From NCBI GenBank assembly GCA_001940855.1, contig MSGS01000065.1, forward strand, positions 19,107 to 83,106: DNA of 64,000 bases. The letters run 5' to 3'. Shown here one piece after another: positions 733-39,652 of this stretch; position 1 is the first letter of the stretch, and the number at the start of each line of letters is the position of its first letter. Source of the DNA: Christensenellaceae bacterium Phil1 (GTDB lineage Bacteria > Bacillota > Clostridia > Christensenellales > CAG-138). Position numbers and translations under genes: made by a program. The notes beneath the pieces are model-generated. The model was not told where the DNA came from, did not search any database, and saw only the letters and a program-made list of their open reading frames with translations.

Positions 733-3700
733 ATGGAACTCATACCCATGACATATCAGGAAACTTTTCGGCTGATACAGGATATGAACGCACTTATTGA
801 CAAAACGGACGGCTTTGCGCTGAACATGCAAAAGCTGTACTGCGTCAAGGAAGTGAAAATGAAGGAGAATCATTGCGATATAATGCGCAAGCTTGATTCC
901 GATCATCAAAACGCAATTGAAAACACCAAGGCAAGATCCAAGAATATGATAAATGAGGCAAAAAGGATCAAGCGGGAAATGCATGCGCTCGATGAGCAGC
1001 TTTCGCATGCAGACAAATACTATGTAAAAACCAAAAAGAAAAAAGAGCTTGAGCTTGCCGGTGTGAAAGACAGAAAATATGATTCCAACGGCGATTATTT
1101 TAAAGCACTCGATCAAATTAAGCATCGCTATTCGGATTTGAGCCGCAAGTACTCCACCGATATACTCCCAAGCCTTATAAACGGGTTAAACTATCTGTTC
1201 TCAAGCAAACGCAAACAGGAGTACGAGGAACTGATAATCCTGCTCAACACGGTGGATGCGTTTGTGACTGAGATTGGCTCCGCAATGCCGGAGATAACGG
1301 CCGAAACGATCGCCGACATGGACTCCGAATATAAAGCGCAGAGGGAAAAGCTTGAAGCGACGCAGCATTTGGAAATAGAAGCCTTGGCGACGGAATATGA
1401 GCATAACATGGCCAGCTTTGCAATGAAAGCGGATGCTGAGTTTGACAAGCTGCTTCCCAAAACGCTTATTAACAGAATGAGGGAGGCGCTGAATAAATTC
1501 AGCGATTCATTCGGCAAGGTCAATTCCGCCGTTCCGGTCGCCAATAATATGCTTGCTGCGGCGATTGTGGATTATCCGATAGCCGACTTTATTAAGTCGG
1601 ATGCGATAAACAAGATCATAAACAAAAAATGCAATGCGATCATAAGCGACGGGAGCATCAAGTTTCCGCTGATATGCTCGACTACGTCCCCTTTGTCATT
1701 TTATATTAAGACGGACGGAACCGGCTCGGAGCCGGTAAAGCAGCTTATACACGGAATAATGTTTTCATTCTTGTCATCCGTGCAGGTATCAAAGCTTAAA
1801 CTTAGCGTGATAGACTGCGAAAACCATGGCAACAGCGCAGCGCCCTATTTCGACGCGAGGAAGAAAATGCCGGAGCTTTTTGACGGCCAGTTCTATACAA
1901 ACTACGAAGCGGCTGCCGCAAAAATACGGGCGCTGAACGAAGAGGTAGAGCGTATTTCTCAGGATGTTTTGGGAACTCAGTATGCATCTGTTTTCGGATA
2001 CACAAAGGATAATCCAAACAGCGAATGCCGTGTCGAACTTCTTACGGTTTTTGATTTTCCCAAGGGCTTTGATGAATATCTGCTTTCTGCTCTTGAAAAC
2101 ATTATTGTTCACGGGCCGCAGTGCGGGATATATGTTGCCATTACCGAAAGCGGCGAAATATCTTCGAATGTTTACTCAAAAGAATACATAAACCATATTG
2201 CGAAAATAAGAAAGGCCTGCGCTTTTATACAGCAGAGAAACACCAAATTCACTGCATCAGGGCTTGATTTAACGTGCTGCGCAATGCCGCCGCGAAACGA
2301 ATTCAACGCTTTCTTTTCAAAGTATTTGCTTATTAACGAAAGCATAAAGAACCGTGGCATCGCTTTCCCGCCGATCATAAAGCGGCTGGTGGACAGCCGG
2401 GATGAAGCGGCGCTTGAGCAAAGCATAAAGGACGTTTGCGATGCAGCGAGCGCTTATGACAATGGCTACGGGCACGTTCCGCAGGCGGCCAACGTGTATC
2501 CGGAGCAGGTGATAATAGGCCAAACACAGTATCCGCAGGATGTGTTTGCGGACTGCCTCGGCTGCGAAAAGATCAAAAGCAGCTTTGCGGCACCGAATGG
2601 GCGCATAATGCTTACGCTTTCGCTTGATTTAAGTCAATCTGCGAACCTGCTGCTGTCCTTTGACGAAAGCCGGGCGGGAAATGCGGCTGCGTTTACGCAT
2701 AATGTTATATGGAGCTTCCTTTCGGCACTGCCGGTTACGAAGACAGATGTTGTAATATTCGATGCCGAGAAAAAAGGCGGAAGCGTAACGCCGTTCCTCG
2801 GCTTCAAGAAGGCCTGCCCGGACGTATTTGACGACAATATCTATTCGAACGCGGATGATATTTACGAGCGGCTGAATAAATTGAACCGGCAGATAGACAG
2901 CCTTATTCAGGAAAAGCTCGGCAGCCGCTTTGCCAATCTTTTGGAATATAACCGCAATACGCCAAATATGGCGGAGCCCATAACGCTGCTTGTAATATAT
3001 GATTTCCCGGGCGGCTTTGACGCAAGAGCATTGAGCATGCTGAACAACATACTCAAAAACGGCGGAAAGTGCGGCGTTTATACAATTATATGCCATAATC
3101 GCGGCGTGCATTATTCCTCTTATGATAACGTTAATGAATATATGGAAACCTATAAGCGGAGCTGCACGCAGATAGAACTGACGGATAAAGCGATATCTCT
3201 CCTTCCGTTTAATCTGCCCATTTCCGTAAAGGAGCCTTTGACGTACAAAGAGATCGACAAATTTGTTGAGGATTATAAAGCGGAGAGCGAAAAGATAAAG
3301 AACAAGGGATTGTCTTTCACGGATATTTTGGATGACGGGCTGTTTTCAAGAACACTTGAAAAGGGTCTGTCCATACCCGTTGGCGTGGTCGACGGGGAGC
3401 ACATAGTGCCTATCACGTTTGGCCGTGGGTCTTCGCATCATGCGCTCATTGCCGGCGCAACCGGTTCGGGTAAATCCACGCTGCTGCACACGCTGATTAT
3501 GAGCGCAATGCTGAATTATTCACCGGATCTGCTTAACCTCTATCTAATGGATTTCAAGAGCGGTACTGAATTCAAGGTGTATGATTCAAGGCGTCTGCCG
3601 CATATTAAACTGCTTGCGTTGGATGCAATGCAGGAGTTCGGCGAAAGCATACTTGAAAATCTTGTTAGCGAAATTGGCAGGCGAAGCGAGATGTTCAAGT

Positions 3701-5100
3701 CTGTTGGCGCGTCTACACTGGGCGAATATGTTAAGCTTTCCGGCGTGGCAATGCCCAAAATACTTATAATAATGGACGAGTTTCAGGTTCTGTATAACGA
3801 TTCCACAAATCGCAAGGTGGCAAACCATTGCGCGGAATTGACAAAGCGCATAGTAACGGAAGGCCGTTCCTACGGCATGCACCTGTTGATGGCTACGCAG
3901 TCCACAAAAATCATTTCGAATCTTACGATTGAAACAGGAACGATTGAGCAGATGCGTATAAGGATAGGCCTGAAATGCGGCGAATGGGACGCAAATTATC
4001 TGTTTACGGAGAGAAACGATGCGAAAGCATTGAAAATGATGAAAGGGCCGATAGGCACGGCCGTTATGAACGAGGAATATACGGAAAAGGACCTGATAGC
4101 CTTCCGGGCGGCTTATTGCGATGACGCAACGCAAAAGAAATACCTTGATATTATCGCCAATGAGCTTACGGAATACAAATACGATCTCCAGACGTTTGAA
4201 GGCAGCAAGGTAACGCCTCTGCTGGATACGGAATTCGGCTCATCTGGTCTTGACGACGAAGCGCCGCTTGCCGTCGAGATAGGCTCGCTTATTAAGGTTG
4301 CGCCGCCGCTGAGAATAGTGTTCGACCGCCGCCGCAAGCACAATACGCTGATATGCGGAAGCGGAGAGCGTATGTCCGAAAATCTTATGAATCTGTATTC
4401 GCTTGCAATACTTAAAAACAATGGCGCCAAGCTCTATTGCTTTGATGGCGAGCGGCTGCTCGGTCCTTCTCAGGCCGATCGCTTCTATGAAGAATACGCG
4501 CGTTTCGGCTCAAGGTTTACAATGGCTGACGGCAGGGGAGACATTATCCGCTGCATCAATGAAGTATATGACATATATACTGCAAGAAAAAAGAAAAACA
4601 GCGGCAATCAGATATTCATCATGATCAAAAACCTTCAGTTTATGGATATAATCAAGTCGATGCTGAAGGGAGAACCGATAGATGAATCGGATTATCTTGA
4701 GGATGCACCGGTTCAGGAAGTGCCGGATGATCCGTTCGATTTCGGCATGGGAATAGATACTTCTGCGATGAATGTATCGGACAAGCTGCTTAAGCTGATA
4801 GACGACGGAACGGTCTACGGAGTATTCTTCATAATCGGAAGTATTGAATTCCAAAGCGTTAAGGAATGCATGTACTTTGGGGAAAATACTCTTCCCAAGT
4901 TCCCCGAACGATATGTATTCTCGCTTAACGACAGCGATGCCGAATCGCTGATAGAGAATATATCGGTAAAGTCTCTTAAGCATAACACGGTGTATTATTC
5001 CGATTCGATCAAGAATACATTCCAGGTGAAGCCGTATGTTTTCCCATCCGCAGAGGAGCTTCATATACACCTGAATTCTGTTATAGGGGGTAACGAATAA
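733..5100 (+). CDS. Four-module FtsK/SpoIIIE-family (EssC/EccC-like) P-loop ATPase, apparently soluble, with a coiled-coil-like N-terminal region
   Basis: 1455-aa ORF with a GGAGG RBS 6 nt before the ATG. It has one canonical Walker A (AGATGSGKST, nt 3451-3480) and Walker B (ILIIMDEFQ, nt 3760-3786). Three degenerate copies of the same module occur at DGTGSEP (nt 1714-1734), DESRAGN (nt 2662-2682) and CGSGERMS (nt 4354-4377). Each copy is followed by a helix and an xLxxxDxxxGG-type strand. The first ~320 aa are Lys/Glu-rich and helical. I saw no hydrophobic TM segment or FHA-like region. Confidence 0.8.
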   Translation: MELIPMTYQETFRLIQDMNALIDKTDGFALNMQKLYCVKEVKMKENHCDIMRKLDSDHQNAIENTKARSKNMINEAKRIKREMHALDEQLSHADKYYVKTKKKKELELAGVKDRKYDSNGDYFKALDQIKHRYSDLSRKYSTDILPSLINGLNYLFSSKRKQEYEELIILLNTVDAFVTEIGSAMPEITAETIADMDSEYKAQREKLEATQHLEIEALATEYEHNMASFAMKADAEFDKLLPKTLINRMREALNKFSDSFGKVNSAVPVANNMLAAAIVDYPIADFIKSDAINKIINKKCNAIISDGSIKFPLICSTTSPLSFYIKTDGTGSEPVKQLIHGIMFSFLSSVQVSKLKLSVIDCENHGNSAAPYFDARKKMPELFDGQFYTNYEAAAAKIRALNEEVERISQDVLGTQYASVFGYTKDNPNSECRVELLTVFDFPKGFDEYLLSALENIIVHGPQCGIYVAITESGEISSNVYSKEYINHIAKIRKACAFIQQRNTKFTASGLDLTCCAMPPRNEFNAFFSKYLLINESIKNRGIAFPPIIKRLVDSRDEAALEQSIKDVCDAASAYDNGYGHVPQAANVYPEQVIIGQTQYPQDVFADCLGCEKIKSSFAAPNGRIMLTLSLDLSQSANLLLSFDESRAGNAAAFTHNVIWSFLSALPVTKTDVVIFDAEKKGGSVTPFLGFKKACPDVFDDNIYSNADDIYERLNKLNRQIDSLIQEKLGSRFANLLEYNRNTPNMAEPITLLVIYDFPGGFDARALSMLNNILKNGGKCGVYTIICHNRGVHYSSYDNVNEYMETYKRSCTQIELTDKAISLLPFNLPISVKEPLTYKEIDKFVEDYKAESEKIKNKGLSFTDILDDGLFSRTLEKGLSIPVGVVDGEHIVPITFGRGSSHHALIAGATGSGKSTLLHTLIMSAMLNYSPDLLNLYLMDFKSGTEFKVYDSRRLPHIKLLALDAMQEFGESILENLVSEIGRRSEMFKSVGASTLGEYVKLSGVAMPKILIIMDEFQVLYNDSTNRKVANHCAELTKRIVTEGRSYGMHLLMATQSTKIISNLTIETGTIEQMRIRIGLKCGEWDANYLFTERNDAKALKMMKGPIGTAVMNEEYTEKDLIAFRAAYCDDATQKKYLDIIANELTEYKYDLQTFEGSKVTPLLDTEFGSSGLDDEAPLAVEIGSLIKVAPPLRIVFDRRRKHNTLICGSGERMSENLMNLYSLAILKNNGAKLYCFDGERLLGPSQADRFYEEYARFGSRFTMADGRGDIIRCINEVYDIYTARKKKNSGNQIFIMIKNLQFMDIIKSMLKGEPIDESDYLEDAPVQEVPDDPFDFGMGIDTSAMNVSDKLLKLIDDGTVYGVFFIIGSIEFQSVKECMYFGENTLPKFPERYVFSLNDSDAESLIENISVKSLKHNTVYYSDSIKNTFQVKPYVFPSAEELHIHLNSVIGGNE

Positions 5101-18692: not shown

Positions 18693-19229
18693 ATGAGAAG
18701 GCTTAGCGGAGCAAAACTCATATCATTGGGCGCAATGTGCACGGCGCTCGGCGTGCTGTGCCTGTATGCGGCGGCTGTGCTGCCAACGGGTCGCGTGGCG
18801 CTGTATTTCTTAGCATCGCTGTTTGTGTATGTCCCTGCGGCCGAAAGCGCGTATTTGGGCGCGGTTGGCGTTTATTTGGCAACGGGCGTGCTTTCGCTTT
18901 TGATACTGCCCAGCCGTGCCGCTGCCGTGCCGTACATAGTGCTGCTTGGGCATTTCGGCATATTCAAAACGTGGTTCGATTCAGTTATGCCCGATAAGGT
19001 GGTGCAGAGCGCGATAAAGGTGCTTTACTGCGATGTATTCACGGTGCTGGGCGCATTCGCGGCGATAAAGCTTTTTGGGTTTGATATGACTACGCTCAGC
19101 GTTGCGCTGCCCATATGGGCAATAGTGCTCATAATGCAGGCGGCGTTTTTAGCATACGACAAGCTGTATTGGATGTGCCAGCGGTTTTATGACGAGCGTA
19201 TCCGCCCCGCCATAAGCCCGAGAAGGTAG
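18693..19229 (+). CDS. Hypothetical membrane protein (about 5 TM)
   Basis: 178 aa, hydrophobic throughout, with a GAGGTGA RBS. Confidence 0.65.
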   Translation: MRRLSGAKLISLGAMCTALGVLCLYAAAVLPTGRVALYFLASLFVYVPAAESAYLGAVGVYLATGVLSLLILPSRAAAVPYIVLLGHFGIFKTWFDSVMPDKVVQSAIKVLYCDVFTVLGAFAAIKLFGFDMTTLSVALPIWAIVLIMQAAFLAYDKLYWMCQRFYDERIRPAISPRR

Positions 19230-19266
19230 CATGCTTACGCATGGGGTGAAATTGCGCTTAGGCGTT

Positions 19267-19744
19267 GTAGAGGCGGCTATTAGCTGCCCGCTCTAACTCC
19301 TTCCGTCTGCTCGCTTTGCTCGCATCCACCTCCCTAAATGAGGGAGGCTTAACGCAAGAGTTTAGATACCGCCCAAAAGGCTCCCTCTTAGAGGGAGCTG
19401 GCGAGCCGTAGGCGAGACTGAGGGAGTTAAAGGCTCCCCGAACGGGGAGCTGGCAAGCCGAAGGCTTGACTGAGGGGTTGAAACAGACAAAGAGCTGCAA
19501 GCTTGTTTTTACTCCCTCCGTCTTTTGCTTCGCAAAATCCACCTCCCTCAAGGATGGAGGCTTAACGTAAGAGTTTGGACATCGGCCAAAAGGCTCCCTC
19601 ACCGAGGGAGCTGGCTATGAGCGTTAGCGAATAGACTGAGGGAGTTAAAGGCTCCCCGAACGGGGAGCTGGCACGGCGCAAGCCGTGACTGAGGGGTTGA
19701 GGTAAAAAGCATAGCCACGGCGGGAGGCCAATAGCCGCTCCTAC
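19267..19744. repeat. Repeat array of about 480 nt bounded by terminal inverted repeats, containing two ~215-nt tandem units of three two-hairpin modules each
   Basis: The inverted termini are GTAGAGGCGGCTATTAGCTGCCCGC (19267-19291) and the reverse complement of 19720-19744 (GTAGGAGCGGCTATTGGCCTCCCGC), matching at 20 of 25 positions. The units start near 19296 and 19511. Each unit holds one reverse and two forward copies of the module AAAGGCTCCC-loop-GGGAGCTGGC-hairpin-GACTGAGGG. Confidence 0.8.
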
Positions 19745-19778
19745 AAATGGAGTTCACTATTTTCAAAGGAGACACAAC

Positions 19779-20024
19779 ATGAGACTGGACAAATACCTGA
19801 AGGTATCGCGCATAATCAAGCGGCGCACCGTTGCCGCGCAGGCGGCGGACTTGGGCCGCATACAGATAAACGGCAAGGTCGCCAAGCCCTCTACCGAGGT
19901 CAAAGAAGGCGACGAGCTGGACATTTTGATGGGCGGCAAGCATATGCGCGTTAAGGTAATAAGCGTGCGCGAATTCGCTCCCAAGGGCGAGGCTGCCGCG
20001 ATGTATGAAATACTCGGCGAATGA
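19779..20024 (+). CDS. S4-domain RNA-binding protein (YabO/Hsp15-like)
   Basis: [49 protein letters not shown] is a typical S4 domain. AAGGAGA RBS. Confidence 0.85.
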
Positions 20025-21181
20025 TATACGATAGCGCGGCCGTGTTCGCGGCGATACTTGCCGCGGGCTCATCCTGCCGCATGGGCAGGGACAAGCTTAG
20101 CCTGTCTTTCGGCGGTAAAAGCCCCGTGGAGCTTTCCATAGAGGCTTTTTCGGTATGCCCCATAAATATAGAGGGCATTATTGTTGCCGCTTCTGCGGCA
20201 AATACGGAGGCCGTGAAGGCATTATGCAGCCGCTATGAAAAGGTACACGTTATAGCCGGGGGTGCAAGCCGCGGGGAAAGCGCGCACAACTGCGTTAAGG
20301 AAGCGCTGCGCCTGAGCGCGGGCAGAAAGGCCGTTATTGCGATACATGACGCCGCGCGCTGCCTTGTGGACAGCGGCACGATATGTCGCGCGGTGGAAGC
20401 CGCATTTGCGCACGGCAGCGGCATAGCCGCCATTCCCGCACGGGATACGCTAAGGCGTGCTGACGGGCAAAGCGTGGAGCGGGACGGGCTTCTCGTAATG
20501 CAAACGCCGCAATGCTTTGATTTGGACTCCATTGCCGCTGCGTATGACAAAAGCCGCGCCGACGGCTATCCGGACACGGACGACTGCGCCGTATACATGC
20601 GCTGCATTGGCGCGCCGCATTACAGCGAAGGCAGCATAATGAATCAAAAGCTTACATACGCGGCGGACATACCGTTTTTCACTGCCGCAAAGGGGGGCAC
20701 GATGCGCATAGGTTGCGGAGAGGACACGCATATACTTACCGAAAACCGTAAACTGATACTTGGCGGGGTGGATATTCCCTACGAAAAGGGCCTGCTTGGC
20801 CACAGCGATGCGGACGTGCTGCTGCACGCCGTGACGGACGCGCTGCTGGGCGCGGCTGCGCTGGGGGACATAGGCCGCCACTTCCCCGATACGGATGAAC
20901 GCTACCGCGGCATAAGCAGCCTTACGCTGCTGAGCGCCGCATATGAAAAGATACGCTCCGCGGGCTATGCCGTGGGCAACATAGACGCAACGATAATAGC
21001 CCAGCGCCCCAAGCTCGCCCCGTACATAGACGCCATGCGCGCCAACATTGCCGCCGCGCTCGGCGTAAGCACAGCCGCCGTGAGCGTGAAGGCCACCACT
21101 ACCGAGGGCATGAATGCCGAAGGCCGCGGCGAATGCATAAGCGCAAGGGCAGTCGCCTGCCTGCGCAGTAAGGTTGGTTAA
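20021..21181 (+). CDS. ispDF: Bifunctional 2-C-methyl-D-erythritol 4-phosphate cytidylyltransferase / MEcPP synthase
   Basis: The N-terminal half has [15 protein letters not shown] (IspD). The C-terminal half has [12 protein letters not shown]...[33 protein letters not shown] (IspF). The start overlaps the upstream stop (ATGA). Confidence 0.92.
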
Positions 21182-21205: not shown

Positions 21206-21263
21206 CCAAAAGACTCCCTCTTAGAGGGAGCTGGTGAGCCGAAGGCGAGACTGAGGGGTTGAA
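21206..21263 (+). repeat. Solo copy of the two-hairpin module
   Basis: CCAAAAGACTCCCTCTTAGAGGGAGCTGGTGAGCCGAAGGCGAGACTGAGGGGTTGAA lies in the convergent gap between ispDF and the transporter gene. Confidence 0.8.
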
Positions 21264-21272
21264 CCGAACATT

Positions 21273-22469
21273 CTACACTATCAGCATCAAAAGCTTAAAC
21301 AGCCAGTTTGCCACCACGCCCGCGAACAGGCCGCTTATCGTGTGGTACAGTATGGCCTTGGCGGTGAAGCGCGTGCTGTGCAGCAGCTCCATCATGGATA
21401 CATGCGTGCTCAGGTAGCCGCTCCAGCACATGCACATTGCCGTGAAAACGGCTATATCGTTGGTGTTTGCCATGCCGCTTTGCAGAAGCCCGGGTATAAG
21501 CCCCAGCGCCGCCCCTGCCGAGCCAAGCGCCGTTACCGGCACGCTCAGTCCTGCGCTTGAGGAGAAGCCGAACAGCGGATGCAGTATAAAATCAAGCTTT
21601 TCCGCTATCCATGGGAATACGGGTATGCCCTCGTAGGCCGCGCCGGTGTATGCGCCGGTTTCCGATGGGCCGTTGGTAAGCATCATTACTATTGTGCATA
21701 TAACCAGCACGCCAGGTATTATGCCAAGCCCCATGTCCACGCCCTTCTTGCCGCCGTCCATAACCGCATTGAGGAAGCGCATAAGGCCGTTGCCCTTGCC
21801 CTCCGTGGGTTCGCTGGTCTGCTCCGCAGGATCAATAGGCTCCGCCTCCGCCTCGCGGCCCATTGCCTTTGCCGTATGGCGGAGCATAAGGCGCGTTGCC
21901 AGTATGCTGCCGCATACCGCGCCCAGATTGCCGCACAGCGCCGCCAGCCCAACGTGCTCACCGCCCGCCGTGCCAAGGCCGATTATGAACGTTGTAACTA
22001 TCAGGCCCATGCCGAAGCTGGTGCCCAGGTTTGTAAGCGCGGGTATCTGATATGCCTTAAAATAGCGGCGGTATTTGGGGTCGTCCGCAAGGGTGAGTAT
22101 TGCGGGATTGTCGCTGAGATATGTTGTAACTATGCCGAGCGCCGCCGCCCCGGGCATGCCGTACAGCGGCCGCATAAGCGGGGAAAGCACGCGGTTTATC
22201 AATTCCACCACGCCGAATTCCGTAAGCACGGCGGAAAGCGCGCCCACTATTACGGCTATAGCCATAAGGTAAAGCGTGGTGTCCATCAGCAGCCTGTACG
22301 CCGTGTTCATCATTGTGTTCATCATGTTCGCAATGCCCATCGGCACGGCGAAAAACGCAAAGAATAGCACGAAGCATATAAGGAATAATACCGCTTTTAA
22401 TGTTTTGCGGCCGGATTTTGCCTTTGCCGCAGCCTTTATCTCAGCCGCAGCGGTAGAATTTATGCTCAT
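21273..22469 (-). CDS. Membrane protein with nucleoside-recognition (Gate) domains, YjiH/SpmA-like putative transporter
   Basis: 398 aa from ATG 22469. It is polytopic, with LMRPLYGMPGAAALGIVTTYLSDNPAILTLADDPKYRRYF. The track ORF's longer N-terminus would overlap the divergent lysR-type gene and its promoter. Confidence 0.7.
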   Translation of the reverse strand: MSINSTAAAEIKAAAKAKSGRKTLKAVLFLICFVLFFAFFAVPMGIANMMNTMMNTAYRLLMDTTLYLMAIAVIVGALSAVLTEFGVVELINRVLSPLMRPLYGMPGAAALGIVTTYLSDNPAILTLADDPKYRRYFKAYQIPALTNLGTSFGMGLIVTTFIIGLGTAGGEHVGLAALCGNLGAVCGSILATRLMLRHTAKAMGREAEAEPIDPAEQTSEPTEGKGNGLMRFLNAVMDGGKKGVDMGLGIIPGVLVICTIVMMLTNGPSETGAYTGAAYEGIPVFPWIAEKLDFILHPLFGFSSSAGLSVPVTALGSAGAALGLIPGLLQSGMANTNDIAVFTAMCMCWSGYLSTHVSMMELLHSTRFTAKAILYHTISGLFAGVVANWLFKLLMLIV

Positions 22470-22643
22470 TTCTGTTACGGTAGCCCTTTCTTGGAAATAA
22501 TGGGTATTTCTTAGGGAAAAACGAACGTAATACAACCCAAATGCGATTATATAACCATATGCCGCGCAAGTAAAATGAATATACTTTGTGTTATACATGA
22601 GTAAAACTGATATCTTGCAACTAATTGAATATGCCGTGATGCA

Positions 22644-22673
22644 TTGACACGGATATGCTGTAATTATTATAAT
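22644..22673 (+). promoter_or_regulatory. Putative promoter of the LysR-type regulator gene (TTGACA, 18 nt, TATAAT)
   Basis: A perfect TTGACA lies at 22644-22649 and a perfect TATAAT at 22668-22673. The GGGAGG RBS at 22694-22699 precedes GTG 22708. Confidence 0.55.
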
Positions 22674-22707
22674 AAAGCATACCAAAGCGAAACGGGAGGT
22701 CATTGCC

Positions 22708-23577
22708 GTGGCAAACAGCAAATACGCCGCATTCATAGCCGCAGCGGAGGAGGGGAACATGACCGCCGCCGCGCAGAAGCTGGGCTACACCCAATCGGGC
22801 GTGAGCCACCTTGTGCATACGCTGGAGCAGGAATTGGGCGTGCAGCTGCTTATCCGCTCAAAGGCGGGCGTGGAGCTTTCGCCGGAGGGGAAGGCGCTAA
22901 TAGGGCATATACGGCGGCTTATAGCGGCGGAGAACGCCGTGCTGAGCGCTGCGGAGGAATTAAGGGGAGTTGAGCGCGGAACGCTCAGGATAGGCACGTT
23001 TTCAAGCGTGGCAATAGCGTGGCTGCCAAGCGTTATGGCAAGGTTCAATGCGCGCTACCCCGGCATTGCCATAACAATAGAAAACGGCACATATTCGCCC
23101 ATTGAGGATATGCTGAGCAGCTCCCTGCTCGATTGCGCATTCGTTGCGCTGCCTTCGCGCGCGGAGTTTGAAACCGTACCCCTTGCGCGGGACAGGCTGC
23201 TTGCGGTTGTGCATCAGGATAGTCCCCTTGCGGCAAAGCGCAGCCTTTCGGCGGAGGATGTTGCAAACGAAACGTTTATAGTTCCAGCGGAGGGGACAAG
23301 CCATGACGTGGGCCGCTTTTTCTCAAGGGCGGGTATACGGCCCAAGGCCGTGCTGAACATGGGCGATGATTATGCGGCGGCCGCAATGGTGGAACGCGCG
23401 CTGGGCTTCACGATACTGCCGGAGCTTATGCTCGGCGCAATGCACTTGGGCAACGTGCGCACCGTGCCGCTTGAGCACAGCGAAAGGGAGATTGGCCTTG
23501 CCATGAACGCCAATTACCACAGCCCCGCCCTTGCGGCGTTCGGCGCATTTATGCGGGAATTTATAAAAGAAGGGTAA
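22708..23577 (+). CDS. LysR-family transcriptional regulator
   Basis: The HTH region is FIAAAEEGNMTAAAQKLGYTQSGVSHLVHTLEQELGVQLLIR, followed by a substrate-binding domain. It is divergent from the transporter gene, the classic LysR arrangement. GTG start. Confidence 0.9.
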   Translation: MANSKYAAFIAAAEEGNMTAAAQKLGYTQSGVSHLVHTLEQELGVQLLIRSKAGVELSPEGKALIGHIRRLIAAENAVLSAAEELRGVERGTLRIGTFSSVAIAWLPSVMARFNARYPGIAITIENGTYSPIEDMLSSSLLDCAFVALPSRAEFETVPLARDRLLAVVHQDSPLAAKRSLSAEDVANETFIVPAEGTSHDVGRFFSRAGIRPKAVLNMGDDYAAAAMVERALGFTILPELMLGAMHLGNVRTVPLEHSEREIGLAMNANYHSPALAAFGAFMREFIKEG

Positions 23578-33852: not shown

Positions 33853-34025
33853 CCTCAAAAGACGCCACCGCATGCTGGGGAGATGGCAATACGCCGTAAG
33901 GCGGATTGTCTGAGGGGGAACAGCAAGATAGCTTGGCATCTTCGAGCCGTTCCCCTTTCGGCCACTCACTTCGTTCGTGTCCACTTTCCCCGTAAACGGG
34001 GATAGCTTTGGGACGGTGGTAGCAC
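33853..34025. repeat. Composite repeat element: forward module + spacer + reverse module (inverted pair)
   Basis: CTCAAAAGACGCCACC..GGGGAGATGGCAATA-CGCCGTAAGGCG-GATTGTCTGAGGGGGAACAGCAAGATAGCTTGGC...TTCCCCTTTCG..ACTTTCCCCGTAAACGGGGATAGCTTTGGG..GGTAGCAC. It is homologous to the elements at 39499-39652 and 52405-52548. Confidence 0.75.
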
Positions 34026-36977: not shown

Positions 36978-39359
36978 ATGAGCCGTATTGATTGCAACGA
37001 GATTGTAAAACGCATGGAGGAGCGCCTCAGTGCGGATTATCAGATAGAGCTGCACGAGGCTTCAACGGTGCAGCTGCATAATGCGCTGGCGGAGGCCGTG
37101 ATGGCCGTTACCGCAAAGGACTGCCGCGAAAGCCGCCGCGCGCATGAGCGCGTGCGCAGGGCATATTATTTCAGCGCGGAATATTTGATGGGCCGTTCGG
37201 TATTTTCAAACCTTTACAATTTGGGGATACTGGACGAAATGCGCTCACTTCTGCGCGAAAGGGGAGCGGACATTTCAGCAATGGAGGAAATTGACGATGC
37301 TGCGCTTGGCAACGGCGGCCTCGGCAGGCTTGCGGCCTGCTATTTGGACAGCGCGGCCACGCTGGGCATACCGCTTGAGGGATATGGGTTAAGGTACAAA
37401 TTCGGCCTGTTCAAGCAGATCTTTGTGGACGGGTTTCAGGTGGAGAAGGCCGACGATTGGCTCAAATACGGCGACCCGTGGAGCAAGCGCAGGGACGATA
37501 AAACCGTTACCGTTGAATTTGCGGATCAAAAGGTGCTTGCCGTGCCGTACGACATGCCCGTTTTCGGCTACAACACGGCGCACAGCGGCACGCTGCGCCT
37601 GTGGCAGAGCGAACCGATAGAGGAATTTGACTTCAATCTGTTTAACGAGCAGGAATACGCGCTCGCCGTGCGTGAAAAGAACATGGTGGAGGATATCACC
37701 CGCGTGCTGTACCCTAACGACAGCACATACGCGGGCAAGCGGCTCAGGCTAAAGCAGCAATACTTCCTTTCAAGCGCCAGCCTGCAGGATATTGTACGCC
37801 GCTATAAGCGCACGCGCGGCACGGACATGAGCATGTTTGCCTCGCATTGCTCCATTCAGCTTAACGATACGCACCCCGTGGTGAGCATACCGGAGCTGAT
37901 AAGGCTTATGATGCTTGAGGGCATGGACTTCAACGCGGCGTTCGAGACCGCGCGCAAAACATTCAACTACACCAACCATACCGTTATGAGCGAGGCGCTG
38001 GAGCGCTGGGACGAGGGGCTGTTTTCAAGCGTTGTGCCGGAGCTGACGGGCATAATTTACCGCATAAACGACCGCCTGAACGACGAGCTGCGCGCCCGCG
38101 GCGCAAGCGACGAAATGCGCAGCCGTATGCAGATAATAGACAACGGCACCATACACATGGCCCGCCTGGCGGTTTATGTTTCAAGCGCGGTGAACGGCGT
38201 TGCCAAGATACATACGGACATACTGAAAAACGATTTGTTCCGCGACTGGTGCGCGCTCTATCCCGAACGCTTCCAGAACAAGACCAACGGCATAACCCCG
38301 CGGAGGTTCCTTGGCCTGTGCAACCCCGAATACGCGGCGCTTATTGCCGAAAAGACGGGGTCTTACGACTTCATTGCCGACCTTAGCCAAATAGGCAGGC
38401 TGAAGGAGCATATTGATGATGATACTATCGCCCGCTTTAATGAAATAAAGGCCAAGAACAAGCGCAGGCTTTCTTCCGTTATAAGCGAAAAGGAAGGCGT
38501 GCTGCTGCCTACGGACTTTGTTTACGACGTGCAGGTGAAGCGGCTGCATGAATACAAGCGGCAGCTTATGAACGCGTTTTCCATACTGGATATATATTAT
38601 TCCATAAAGGACGGCACGCTTACGGATTTCACCCCCACGGCGTTCATATTCGGCGCAAAGGCCGCGCCGGGCTACATACGGGCTAAGAACATTATAAAGT
38701 TCATAAACGAAATTGCCAACATGGTCAATTCAGACCCCGCCATGAAGGACGTTATGCGCGTTGTGTTCGTGCAGAACTACAACTGCTCCTATGCGGAAAT
38801 GATAATCCCGGCGGCGGATATATCGGAGCAGATATCCCCCGCCGGAACGGAGGCCAGCGGCACGGGCAACATGAAGCTGATGCTCAACGGCGCGGTAACG
38901 CTTGGCACATATGACGGGGCAAACATAGAAATTGCCGAGCAGGCAGGGCTTGAGAACAACTATATATTCGGCGCAACGGTGGAGGATATTGCAAAAACAC
39001 GCTCCTCCTACGACCCGAAGGGCATATACGAATCCAACCCCCGCATAAAGCGCGCGCTGGACACGCTGGTGAACGGCACGTTTACGGACGGCGGCATGGG
39101 CGGCTTCAAGGAGCTTTATGATTCGCTGCTGTACGGCGCGGCATGGCATACGCCAGACCAATACTATCTGCTGCTGGATATGCCCTCCTACATGGAGGCA
39201 AAGCTGCGCGCCAACCGCGACTACCGCGACCGCACGGCCTTCGGCCGCAAGTGCCTTATGAATACCGCCGGTGCGGGCAAGTTCTCTTCCGACCGCGCGC
39301 TGAAGGAATACGCGGAGGAGATTTGGCACATACCGACAATAACGGGCTTACGCCCGTAG
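36978..39359 (+). CDS. glgP: Glycogen/maltodextrin phosphorylase
   Basis: 793 aa from ATG 36978 (GGAGGG RBS). AYYFSAEYLMGRS, ALGNGGLGRLAACYLDS and EASGTGNMKLMLNGA (PLP lysine region) are phosphorylase signatures. Confidence 0.93.
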   Translation: MSRIDCNEIVKRMEERLSADYQIELHEASTVQLHNALAEAVMAVTAKDCRESRRAHERVRRAYYFSAEYLMGRSVFSNLYNLGILDEMRSLLRERGADISAMEEIDDAALGNGGLGRLAACYLDSAATLGIPLEGYGLRYKFGLFKQIFVDGFQVEKADDWLKYGDPWSKRRDDKTVTVEFADQKVLAVPYDMPVFGYNTAHSGTLRLWQSEPIEEFDFNLFNEQEYALAVREKNMVEDITRVLYPNDSTYAGKRLRLKQQYFLSSASLQDIVRRYKRTRGTDMSMFASHCSIQLNDTHPVVSIPELIRLMMLEGMDFNAAFETARKTFNYTNHTVMSEALERWDEGLFSSVVPELTGIIYRINDRLNDELRARGASDEMRSRMQIIDNGTIHMARLAVYVSSAVNGVAKIHTDILKNDLFRDWCALYPERFQNKTNGITPRRFLGLCNPEYAALIAEKTGSYDFIADLSQIGRLKEHIDDDTIARFNEIKAKNKRRLSSVISEKEGVLLPTDFVYDVQVKRLHEYKRQLMNAFSILDIYYSIKDGTLTDFTPTAFIFGAKAAPGYIRAKNIIKFINEIANMVNSDPAMKDVMRVVFVQNYNCSYAEMIIPAADISEQISPAGTEASGTGNMKLMLNGAVTLGTYDGANIEIAEQAGLENNYIFGATVEDIAKTRSSYDPKGIYESNPRIKRALDTLVNGTFTDGGMGGFKELYDSLLYGAAWHTPDQYYLLLDMPSYMEAKLRANRDYRDRTAFGRKCLMNTAGAGKFSSDRALKEYAEEIWHIPTITGLRP

Positions 39360-39421
39360 TGAAATTGCGCTTAGGCGCAGTGAAATATTGCTTCCGCCAT
39401 GTGAAATACGCCTATCGGCGT
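39359..39421 (+). repeat. Three tandem 21-nt units, each GTGAAAT plus a 5-bp mini-hairpin, in the glgP 3' region
   Basis: GTGAAATTGCGCTTAGGCGCA / GTGAAATATTGCTTCCGCCAT / GTGAAATACGCCTATCGGCGT, then GTGAGC. The first 19 nt are identical to 19246-19264. Confidence 0.75.
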
Positions 39422-39447
39422 GTGAGCATGAGAAATTATAAGGATAT

Positions 39448-39477: not shown

Positions 39478-39498
39478 ATTGTTTGGTGCTACCGCTAA

Positions 39499-39652
39499 CC
39501 AAAAGCTGTCCCCGCGTGCGGGGAAAGTGGCATGGCGAAGCCATGACGAAAGGGGAACGGCTCAGAGCAGCCAAGCTATTATACTATTCCCCCTCAGTCG
39601 GCTAACGCCGACAGCTCCCCCGCGTGCGGTGGAGCCTTTTGGTACAGCGGCA
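39499..39652. repeat. Composite repeat element (inverted pair of two-hairpin modules)
   Basis: CCAAAAGCTGTCCCCGCGTGCGGGGAAAGTGG-CATGGCGAAGCCATG-ACGAAAGGGGAA...spacer...TTCCCCCTCAGTC-GGCTAACGCC-GACAGCTCCCCCGCGTGCGGTGGAGCCTTTTGG. It is approximately the reverse complement of the element at 52405-52548. Confidence 0.8.

Follow-up and report, generated by a model that had tools for sequence, protein, structure and literature searches.

A strain-variable mosaic of dispersed repeats, probably of the intrastrand-triplex type, in the spacer before an S4-domain gene of a Christensenellaceae bacterium

The DNA studied here, referred to throughout as the window, is a stretch of 64,000 nucleotides from Christensenellaceae bacterium Phil1 (contig MSGS01000065.1). 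The feature of interest is the 549-nt spacer between a 178-aa membrane-protein open reading frame (ORF), which stops at 19229, and an 81-aa S4-domain gene, which begins at 19779 (Pfam S4, E 4e-13). The spacer opens with the hairpin CATGC-TTAC-GCATG (19230-19243, + strand), located directly after the 178-aa ORF stop codon and outside the repeat family described below. The 19-mer GTGAAATTGCGCTTAGGCG (19246-19264, + strand) marks the left edge of a repeat array, which lies between the left (19265-19291) and right (19720-19746) arms of a 27-nt inverted repeat, 81% complementary to each other. A first-pass annotation, made from the letters alone, had described the ~550-nt repeat-filled gap, the hairpin, the 19-mer and the ends of the flanking genes, and all of these were recovered at the same coordinates. 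Its two tandem ~215-nt units were found again as direct-repeat families spaced 213 and 218 nt, the units being 86-92% identical and carrying a 52-nt sub-period (TRF), and its ~55-nt two-hairpin module, densely packed and facing both ways, was reproduced as four forward and two reverse profile matches. What that annotation missed is the third block of the module, the rule that this block obeys and the wide distribution of the module. On balance, it is probable that the spacer is an unstable mosaic cluster of dispersed, non-coding DNA repeats of the intrastrand-triplex type (class II).

The spacer modules were defined by a profile search (nhmmer) with a profile built from unrelated copies in other genomes. 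Six modules of 52-60 nt each, four forward and two inverted, were identified within 19293-19703 (E 5e-13 to 1e-5), the matches covering 19377-19430, 19431-19482, 19590-19648 and 19648-19700 in the forward direction and 19294-19351 and 19510-19563 in reverse. The window contains the pattern CTCCC-N3-9-GGGAGNTGG six times, and none of 100 shuffles contains it. Read 5' to 3', the module has the consensus GGCTCCCYC-N3-6-GRGGGAGCTGG-hairpin-GACTGAGGGRK, that is, a pyrimidine arm, a loop of 3-6 nt (loop 1), the purine arm GRGGGAGC, the bases TGG, a hairpin of free sequence, the bases GAC and the tail TGAGGGRK. The hairpin-bearing second loop (loop 2) is 18-40 nt long. A second type of module, termed type B, reads GCCTCCC...GGGAGG-TGG...GAC-GGAGGG and is always inverted relative to type A in this window.

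The tail was found to be the mirror image of the purine arm and not its complement, G corresponding with G, A with A or T, and C with T. Nine window modules were scored for this mirror code and gave values from 6/7 to 8/8. The first module of the spacer, B1 (19293-19352, - strand; nhmmer E 1.4e-5; mirror code 6/7), is of inverted type B and comprises the purine arm AGGGAG (19330-19335), the box GTGG, a degenerate loop-2 region (19308-19325), the box GACG and the tail GAAGGAG (19297-19303). It is followed by the type-A module A1 (19376-19431, + strand; nhmmer E 5e-13; mirror code 8/8), with the pyrimidine arm GGCTCCCTC (19379-19387), purine arm GAGGGAG (19391-19397), box CTGG, loop-2 hairpin (19402-19415), box GACT and tail GAGGGAG (19420-19426); its DNA fold consists of two hairpins. 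The adjoining type-A module A2 (19429-19484, + strand; mirror code 7/7) has the pyrimidine arm GGCTCCCC, purine arm GGGGAG (19444-19449), hairpin CAAGCC-GAA-GGCTTG (19454-19468) and tail GAGGGG (19472-19477), and its DNA fold (z = -3.8) leaves the tail single-stranded. B2 (19508-19565, - strand), a profile match of inverted type B, scored 8/8 and carries the purine arm GAGGGAG (19543-19549), hairpin TTTTGC-GAA-GCAAAA (19523-19538) and tail GAGGGAG (19512-19518). Two further type-A modules complete the array: A3 (19589-19649, + strand; profile match; mirror code 8/8), with purine arm GAGGGAG (19604-19610), loop-2 hairpin (19615-19633) and tail GAGGGAG (19638-19644), and A4 (19647-19703, + strand; mirror code 7/7; DNA fold z = -3.8), with purine arm GGGGAG (19662-19667), hairpin CACGGC-GCAA-GCCGTG (19672-19687) and tail GAGGGG (19691-19696). 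When single modules were folded as DNA, the minimum-energy structure had two hairpins and a tail that was largely or wholly unpaired.

The wider family was sampled with the strict pattern GGGAGCTGG-N8-30-GACTGAGGG, which returned 107 stretches in viral contigs and at least 120 in species-representative genomes. The pyrimidine arm, which is absent from this search pattern, forms hairpin 1 in 204/247 distinct instances, and the family matches are therefore not chance. The middle hairpin was represented by 183 distinct sequences with loops that were mainly GAA, GTA or GCA, and a perfect stem of at least 4 bp was present in 70% of them, as against 9.5% of shuffles. All structure statistics were computed directly from the instances; a MAFFT alignment misplaces the arms. 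At the first variable position of arm and tail, A stood with A in 83/86 cases, G with G in 98/105 and C with T in 2/2, and at the second variable position A stood with T in 100/107 and G with G in 58/59. A broader search, which constrained solely TGG/GAC, hairpin 1 and hairpin 2, gave 96.7% legal triplets (G-G, A-A, A-T, C-T) over the paired arm (n=166 family instances). Across 23 distinct arm/tail types 178/187 positions were legal, while permuted pairings gave 132 +/- 5 and none of 20000 permutations reached 178. The base beside the box followed the same code, an arm C going with a tail T in type A (149 instances) and an arm G with a tail G in type B (15 instances), with one exception.

Could the tail instead be an alternative Watson-Crick partner of the pyrimidine arm, as in a switch? 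Six arm/tail types separate the mirror rule from Watson-Crick pairing, since their tracts differ when read in opposite directions. These discriminating types are the purine arm GGAGAAGG with the tail GGATGTGG, GGGGAAGG with GGATGAGG, GGGGGAAG with GAAGGGGG, GGGAGAG with GAGAGGG, AAGGGGG with GGGGGAT, and GGGGAAAG with GAAAGGGG. In such types the longest Watson-Crick run between tail and pyrimidine arm was mostly 3-5 bp, and the T-for-A replacements abolish Watson-Crick pairing with the pyrimidine arm yet are legal T.A-T triplets; a switch is ruled out as the general rule by these short runs and replacements. Antiparallel G.G-C, A.A-T and T.A-T contacts are those of the purine-motif triplex, and the strand order pyrimidine-purine-third strand is that of a class II intrastrand triplex (PMC4666352). 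The modules have the block order of the class II purine type and the mirror relation that goes with it, whereas their second loop lies outside the 0-10 nt or 1-6 nt loops admitted by published triplex searches (PMC4666352), and such searches would therefore miss them. A pyrimidine-motif reading of the complementary strand breaks down where T faces A. Two other candidates were set aside: a G-quadruplex, for which there are two G-runs per module and which leaves the A/T correspondences unaccounted for, and kink-turn, box C/D-like or hammerhead (CUGANGA) readings of the CTGG/GACTGA junction, for which the required GA/AG positions are missing.

The orientation of the modules was compared with that of the flanking genes. 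For 124 scorable copies elsewhere, the module lay in the same direction as the flanking genes in 38 and opposite to them in 40, and it stood between convergent genes in 25 and divergent genes in 21. Together with the triplex code, this random orientation relative to genes argues for an element that acts at the DNA level. A partner within 130 nt was inverted for 94/230 modules and direct for only 21/230, so the inverted pair behaves as a unit. The module recurs in Oscillospirales, and among the matches listed the hosts were mostly Oscillospiraceae, Acutalibacteraceae, Ruminococcus, Faecalibacterium and other Clostridia, joined by Negativicutes, Bifidobacterium, Deinococcus, Caulobacteraceae, Bacteroidota bins and gut phage contigs. 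Isolate genomes with modules included those of Ruminococcus callidus ATCC 27760, Faecalibacterium intestinale, Bifidobacterium species and Deinococcus species, and the Deinococcus and Caulobacteraceae copies likewise have an inverted type-B partner upstream. On phage contigs the modules were placed between structural genes. A BLAST search of the spacer against phage records gave only short, module-sized matches, to unannotated gut "Bacteriophage sp." contigs, and the same search against plasmids gave no matches. As a separate observation, several loci (L003, L005, L012 and L097, next to a PAC2-family gene; L064:115-173; and L114) carry the boxes, middle hairpin and tail with no pyrimidine arm; these include tandem R-hairpin-tail units, which a triplex model leaves unexplained.

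Five modules outside the S4 spacer bring the total to eleven in 64 kb. A solitary type-A module (21207-21265, + strand; nhmmer E 4e-11; mirror code 6/7) sits between the convergent ispDF (20021-21181, +) and Gate-domain (21273-22760, -) genes. At 39.5 kb, a variant module (39494-39562, + strand; mirror code 8/8) with purine arm GGGGAAA(G) (39520-39526), box GTGG, hairpin CATGGC-GAA-GCCATG and tail GAAAGGGGAA (39548-39557) forms a tail-to-tail inverted pair with a type-A module that has one pyrimidine-arm mismatch (39584-39642, - strand; nhmmer E 0.006; mirror code 8/8), the latter having the purine arm GGGGGAG (39615-39621), hairpin CGGC-GTTA-GCCG and tail GAGGGGGAA (39587-39595). The remaining pair lies downstream of nifU and was read by eye: a type-A-like module (33858-33922, + strand) is accompanied by a variant module (33948-34011, - strand; purine arm GGGGAAAG, tail GAAAGGGG) that is a paralogue of the copy at 39494-39562 with another loop-2 hairpin, and this pair obeys the same mirror rule. 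Paralogous copies in the window thus bear differing, internally compensated middle hairpins. The middle hairpin at 19402-19415 and 21235-21248 (CGAGCC-GTA-GGCGAG) is imperfect and related copies elsewhere read CTCGCC-GTA-GGCGAG, a difference that looks like a local inversion of the 5' half. The window genes near modules are housekeeping genes (ProRS, PPDK, IspDF, IscS/NifU, glycogen phosphorylase and Pth), and a scan detected no tRNA or tmRNA.

The S4 spacer was compared in ten other assemblies that encode an identical S4 protein. Its length was 533, 437, 279, 258, 223, 657, 554, 124, 533 and 597 nt in these strains, compared with 549 nt in the window. In one of them (L235) the spacer is without any module, and the remaining strains have from one copy up. 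The allele in L230 corresponds to the window minus A1 to A3, joined inside a repeated AAAGGCTCCC box, and L228 and others carry a chimera of the A1 hairpin 1 with the A4 loop-2 hairpin. Content between the inverted-repeat arms differs module by module across strains. The left arm was absent and the right arm kept in L228, L229, L231, L233 and L236, and one strain had neither; the arms being uncoupled in this way, the inverted repeat is not a stable boundary or an element terminus. Upstream of S4, the strain comparison found conserved sequence limited to the ribosome-binding site of the gene.

Similar variation was observed at other sites. The ispDF-Gate spacer is ~92 nt in nine strains versus 641 nt in the Hadza-derived L236 (4403-5044). 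At 39.5 kb, where NifU served as the look-up protein, the spacer of the window is 354 nt long and contains the ~150-nt inverted pair, which 9/10 other strains lack at this site; nine strains have a spacer of 193-202 nt with just the tail remnant GACTGAGGGGTTG, one has 335 nt, and L241 has a different array at this spacer, opening with the GTGAAAT-repeat junction seen at 19246-19275. The pair downstream of nifU was present at the same site in 10/10 other strains. Module-free spacers of the same loci were constant in length within 1 nt, which identifies the modules as markers of unstable sites. Arrays therefore gain and lose whole modules, chimeras arise, and inverted A/B pairs appear or disappear as units; blocks also appear to have been transferred between loci. 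The breakpoints fall in shared boxes, a pattern that fits slippage or unequal/ectopic recombination, and neither a target-site duplication nor a clean empty site was found at the junctions examined (S4 spacer and 39.5-kb spacer). It was also observed that an insert of ~110-150 nt (GGTTGGAACAAGGTCGCCTTACTCACTG...GCGCTCAACTCC) interrupts modules at two loci in different strains (L229, L233 and L237, about 2400-2560 in each; L244:6610-6730; L241:6620-6760, reverse). It has no Rfam match, and its positions suggest another small mobile element that targets modules.

A second, smaller repeat family accompanies the modules. Each unit is made up of GTGAAAT and a 5-bp hairpin whose sequence is free, the units repeating in tandem every 21 nt, and the 19-mer GTGAAATTGCGCTTAGGCG is one truncated unit of this family. 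Three tandem units occur at 39359-39425 of the window, after the glycogen phosphorylase gene, and three more in the module-free allele L235 (2873-2940), with a further match at L236:4570-4595; the pattern was found twice in the window versus 0.04 expected. The junction GTGAAATTGCGCTTAGGCG|TTGTAGRGGC, in which the GTGAAAT repeat is joined to the left inverted-repeat arm, was seen both at 19246-19275 and at the unrelated L241 locus, in a spacer between a 489-aa gene and a phosphorylase gene (about 815-1150). This recurrence suggests that blocks are transferred between loci or, alternatively, that insertion favours one point. Contigs from other loci terminate, after a module, in sequence related to the right arm (loose ends at 19720). 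The CATGC-TTAC-GCATG hairpin is present in L230, L234 and L237, which have the left-flank type of the window, and in slightly altered form in L229; other strains are without it.

The favoured reading takes together the observed architecture, mirror covariation, structural conservation of hairpin 2, gene-independent orientation, wide distribution and strain instability. According to this reading, when the G-rich strand becomes single during replication, repair or transcription, the pyrimidine and purine arms would form a hairpin, and the variable second hairpin, held between CTGG and GACT, would reverse the direction of the chain. The tail could then lie antiparallel to the purine arm in the major groove through G.G-C, A.A-T, T.A-T and T.C-G triplets. 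Folded units and the many near-identical boxes may stall or misalign replication and recombine with each other. We infer from the covariation that such a triplex may form in the cell, and it may also be a cause of the instability. No mobilising enzyme that might seed new copies was found in the 29 window ORFs scanned or beside modules at other loci. In the window the array probably travels passively in a transcript running from the DUF5685-DnaJ-membrane protein genes to S4-ispDF; neither promoter-like nor strong terminator-like sites were detected in the spacer, and conservation upstream of S4 is limited to the ribosome-binding site.

Several points weigh against this reading. The case for a triplex in this family is built on covariation, and shared ancestry reduces the supporting changes to ~8-10 independent ones and not hundreds. 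There are exceptions to the mirror rule, amounting to three to four types, for example GGGGGAG/GAGAGGG (L071, L080, L203) and AGGGGGC/GAGGGA, and copies without the pyrimidine arm exist (L003, L064, L114). A palindromic GAGGGAG tail could equally pair with the pyrimidine arm, and the minimum-energy RNA fold of A3 does so. No characterised intrastrand triplex has a second loop that comes near the 20-40 nt seen here, and in vivo footprinting of TM_ECO in E. coli pointed to merely minor or transient formation (PMC4666352). Finally, a triplex by itself does not account for the invariant CTGG/GACT boxes, which hint at some protein partner, and the favoured reading leaves the spread across phyla unaccounted for.

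The closest known kind of repeat is the BoxC/PIT/TM_ECO group (Bachellier, 1990s; Hoyne, Maher 2000; Holder et al. 2015, PMC4666352). The TM_ECO consensus is CCCTCNCCC-N3-6-GGGNGAGGG-N3-GGGNGAGGG, with 23 copies in E. coli K-12 that are all intergenic and show no strand bias, and the group has two subtypes that pair inverted, variable loci and triplex formation in vitro (PMC4666352). The modules share with it a pyrimidine block, a purine block and a mirroring purine block on one strand with A or T opposite A (class II); a G/C-rich, multi-copy and strictly intergenic character with no strand or gene-function bias; and two subtypes paired inverted in carrier loci that are unusually strain-variable. 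The sequences differ, however, the modules reading CTCCCYC / GRGGGAG / GAGGGRK as compared with CCCTCNCCC / GGGNGAGGG / GGGNGAGGG, and the TM_ECO sequence family was not matched. The module tracts are also shorter (6-10 triplets), and in place of a 3-nt second loop there are 20-40 nt with CTGG/GACT around a free-sequence hairpin. BoxC/PIT/TM_ECO belong to Proteobacteria, whereas the modules are found chiefly in gut Clostridia and, beyond these, in Actinomycetota, Deinococcota, Alphaproteobacteria and phage contigs. The modules moreover build long tandem or mosaic arrays, and the triplex, formed in vitro by the E. coli elements, is here predicted from the sequence. With H-DNA mirror repeats the modules have in common the base code (G.G-C, A.A-T, T.A-T) and the mirror symmetry of the purine tract, but H-DNA is one long mirror repeat within a duplex under supercoiling, while the module is three short blocks on one strand, interrupted by a hairpin and needing a single strand. 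A literature search, which misses some journals, found neither the box sequences in a relevant context nor such a repeat in Clostridia. The modules are thus probably a further form of triplex-type repeat, with known logic and behaviour, a different sequence and a hairpin-bearing second loop.

The main rival is a mechanism like that of REP/REPIN elements, in which a dedicated enzyme with one gene per genome, for example a RAYT or another HUH protein, would mobilise the inverted A/B pair, itself non-autonomous, in single-stranded form. The boxes, loop-2 hairpin and tail would serve as recognition or guide elements, and the mirror rule would reflect base contacts within the enzyme and not a free triplex. 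This is a possible account, if an unlikely one. The REP/BIME/REPIN repeats of Gammaproteobacteria are likewise short, structured and extragenic, occur singly, as inverted doublets and in mosaic alternating clusters with conserved spacers, vary in copy number among strains and can reside inside operons. The excess of inverted over direct partners fits such a unit, as do the invariance of the CTGG/GACT boxes, the BIME-like alternation of orientation within clusters, and the ~150-nt pair at 39.5 kb, absent in nine strains and with a paralogue downstream of nifU; presence in phage contigs and several phyla suggests active spread. No transposase, RAYT or HUH gene was detected, however, in the 29 window ORFs scanned or beside modules at other loci, where the recurring genes were phage portal, scaffold, terminase and helicase genes, and the junctions examined gave no sign of target-site duplication or a clean empty site. 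Known REP/RAYT systems are lineage-specific in sequence whereas the module boxes are common to several phyla, and the modules add a mirror-related third block and a second hairpin to the REP design. Note also that movement of this kind is compatible with a triplex fold and does not replace it. A conventional transposon was rejected, as ORFs between inverted module pairs proved to be MarR/DegV, capsid and DUF927 genes and the window neighbours are housekeeping genes.

It could also be that the array works as RNA, the transcribed repeats acting as a non-coding RNA or as a platform on which the message of the flanking operon is processed, stabilised or terminated. We regard this as very doubtful. 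The first-pass annotation had seen no convincing terminator, and neither a strong terminator nor a sigma-70-like promoter was detected between the flanking same-strand genes, which makes read-through transcription plausible; the array probably lies within a polycistronic message. Relative to shuffled sequence, the whole 549-nt spacer is predicted to fold very stably, with z = -8.6 for the + strand and z = -6.9 for the - strand, and the loop-2 hairpin keeps its structure despite its free sequence. A metatranscriptome contig extends from inside A4 into the S4 gene, although the RNA data are assembler contigs of few runs, fragmenting at repeats, and may include DNA; assembler word depth over the array was 10-25x that of the flanks in isolate-like runs, and contigs break there. 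In some genomes the inverted type-B module has the form of a perfect intrinsic terminator, as in Ruminococcus callidus (CCTCCCC-TTTC-GGGGAGG-CTTTTTT, with T6), and the A/B pair could act as one in that species. The T-tract is not family-wide. On the + strand of the window no module is followed by a T-run, and on the opposite strand some copies show a hairpin followed by CTTTTGG (21231-21213). The R. callidus ATCC 27760 locus (L226, reverse strand, 900-1400 and 3380-4100) consists of arrays of a ~150-nt unit in which about 45 nt separate a type-A module from an inverted type-B module.

Other results speak against RNA as the primary nature of the array, a possibility that the same annotation had raised. 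Orientation is random with respect to genes in the 124 copies and both orientations occur within one array, which is itself dispensable (L235 has none). The Rfam match that was sought did not appear, with none in the window at gathering score, nor in a related allele, and for the array region none even at E = 10, the best hits reaching 14-16 bits where thresholds of 38-53 apply. Covariation between the third block and the purine arm follows a mirror relation, with T opposite A and G opposite G, which is the code of a DNA purine-motif triplex and not RNA Watson-Crick pairing, and RNA reportedly does not form triplexes of the purine motif (PMC4666352); the pyrimidine-motif reading of the complementary strand fails at the A/T positions. 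E. coli PIT elements, for their part, have no promoter or terminator activity (PMC4666352).

That the whole is a single miniature inverted-repeat transposable element (MITE), inserted once with terminal inverted repeats and then duplicated internally, has become close to untenable: the complementary 27-nt pair that had been called terminal does exist, the two ~215-nt units are alike and the left-arm/GTGAAAT junction recurs in L241, but five strains with the right arm lack the left and one has neither, what lies between the arms varies by module, the right arm has no second window copy, the L241 junction is without a right arm, no target-site duplication was seen, and the internal modules occur alone at many other sites and in other phyla. 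The pneumococcal BOX elements (boxA-boxB-boxC), which are modular, MITE-like repeats of Firmicutes, resemble the array in being intergenic, with variable internal modules, and strongly folded if transcribed; they differ in that the modules described here are without fixed terminal modules, terminal inverted repeats or target duplications and are defined by the mirror-related third block. The two mechanical ORFs across the array (19258-19602 and 19599-20072, - strand, antisense to the S4 gene) had been dismissed as artefacts, and rightly so, since the spacer length changes between strains by non-multiples of three; they also have no Pfam match. A crude ORF survey placed 56 modules inside antisense ORFs and 25 inside same-strand ORFs, the arrays spawning long spurious ORFs that are mostly antisense to the G-rich strand, and module arrays are likely to give rise to false gene calls in metagenome bins.

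Since the description of BoxC/PIT it has been an open question whether living bacteria form intrastrand DNA triplexes and whether these matter. The E. coli repeats are too uniform to provide evidence from covariation, whereas the module family offers more than 20 purine tracts. The third block tracks nearly all of these according to the triplex code, and the connecting hairpin is free in sequence yet conserved in structure, a combination that suggests selection for the folded form. A protein partner is further suggested by the invariant CTGG/GACT boxes and the cross-phylum spread. A bolder proposal, which we think quite unlikely, is that the hairpin-plus-triplex fold with its invariant boxes is the substrate of an undiscovered mobilisation or targeted-recombination system acting on single-stranded DNA, which would spread the module through phyla and phages and programme hot spots of rearrangement; if so, the mirror covariation would be the first evolutionary proof of an intrastrand triplex that is formed and read in living bacteria. 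In practical terms, the arrays break metagenome assemblies, yield false ORFs and mark strain-variable spacers that are useful for strain typing. For the biology of the family, the favoured reading would widen the range of triplex-type repeats to the abundant Clostridia of the human gut as well as other phyla and phages, beyond the loop limits of existing searches.

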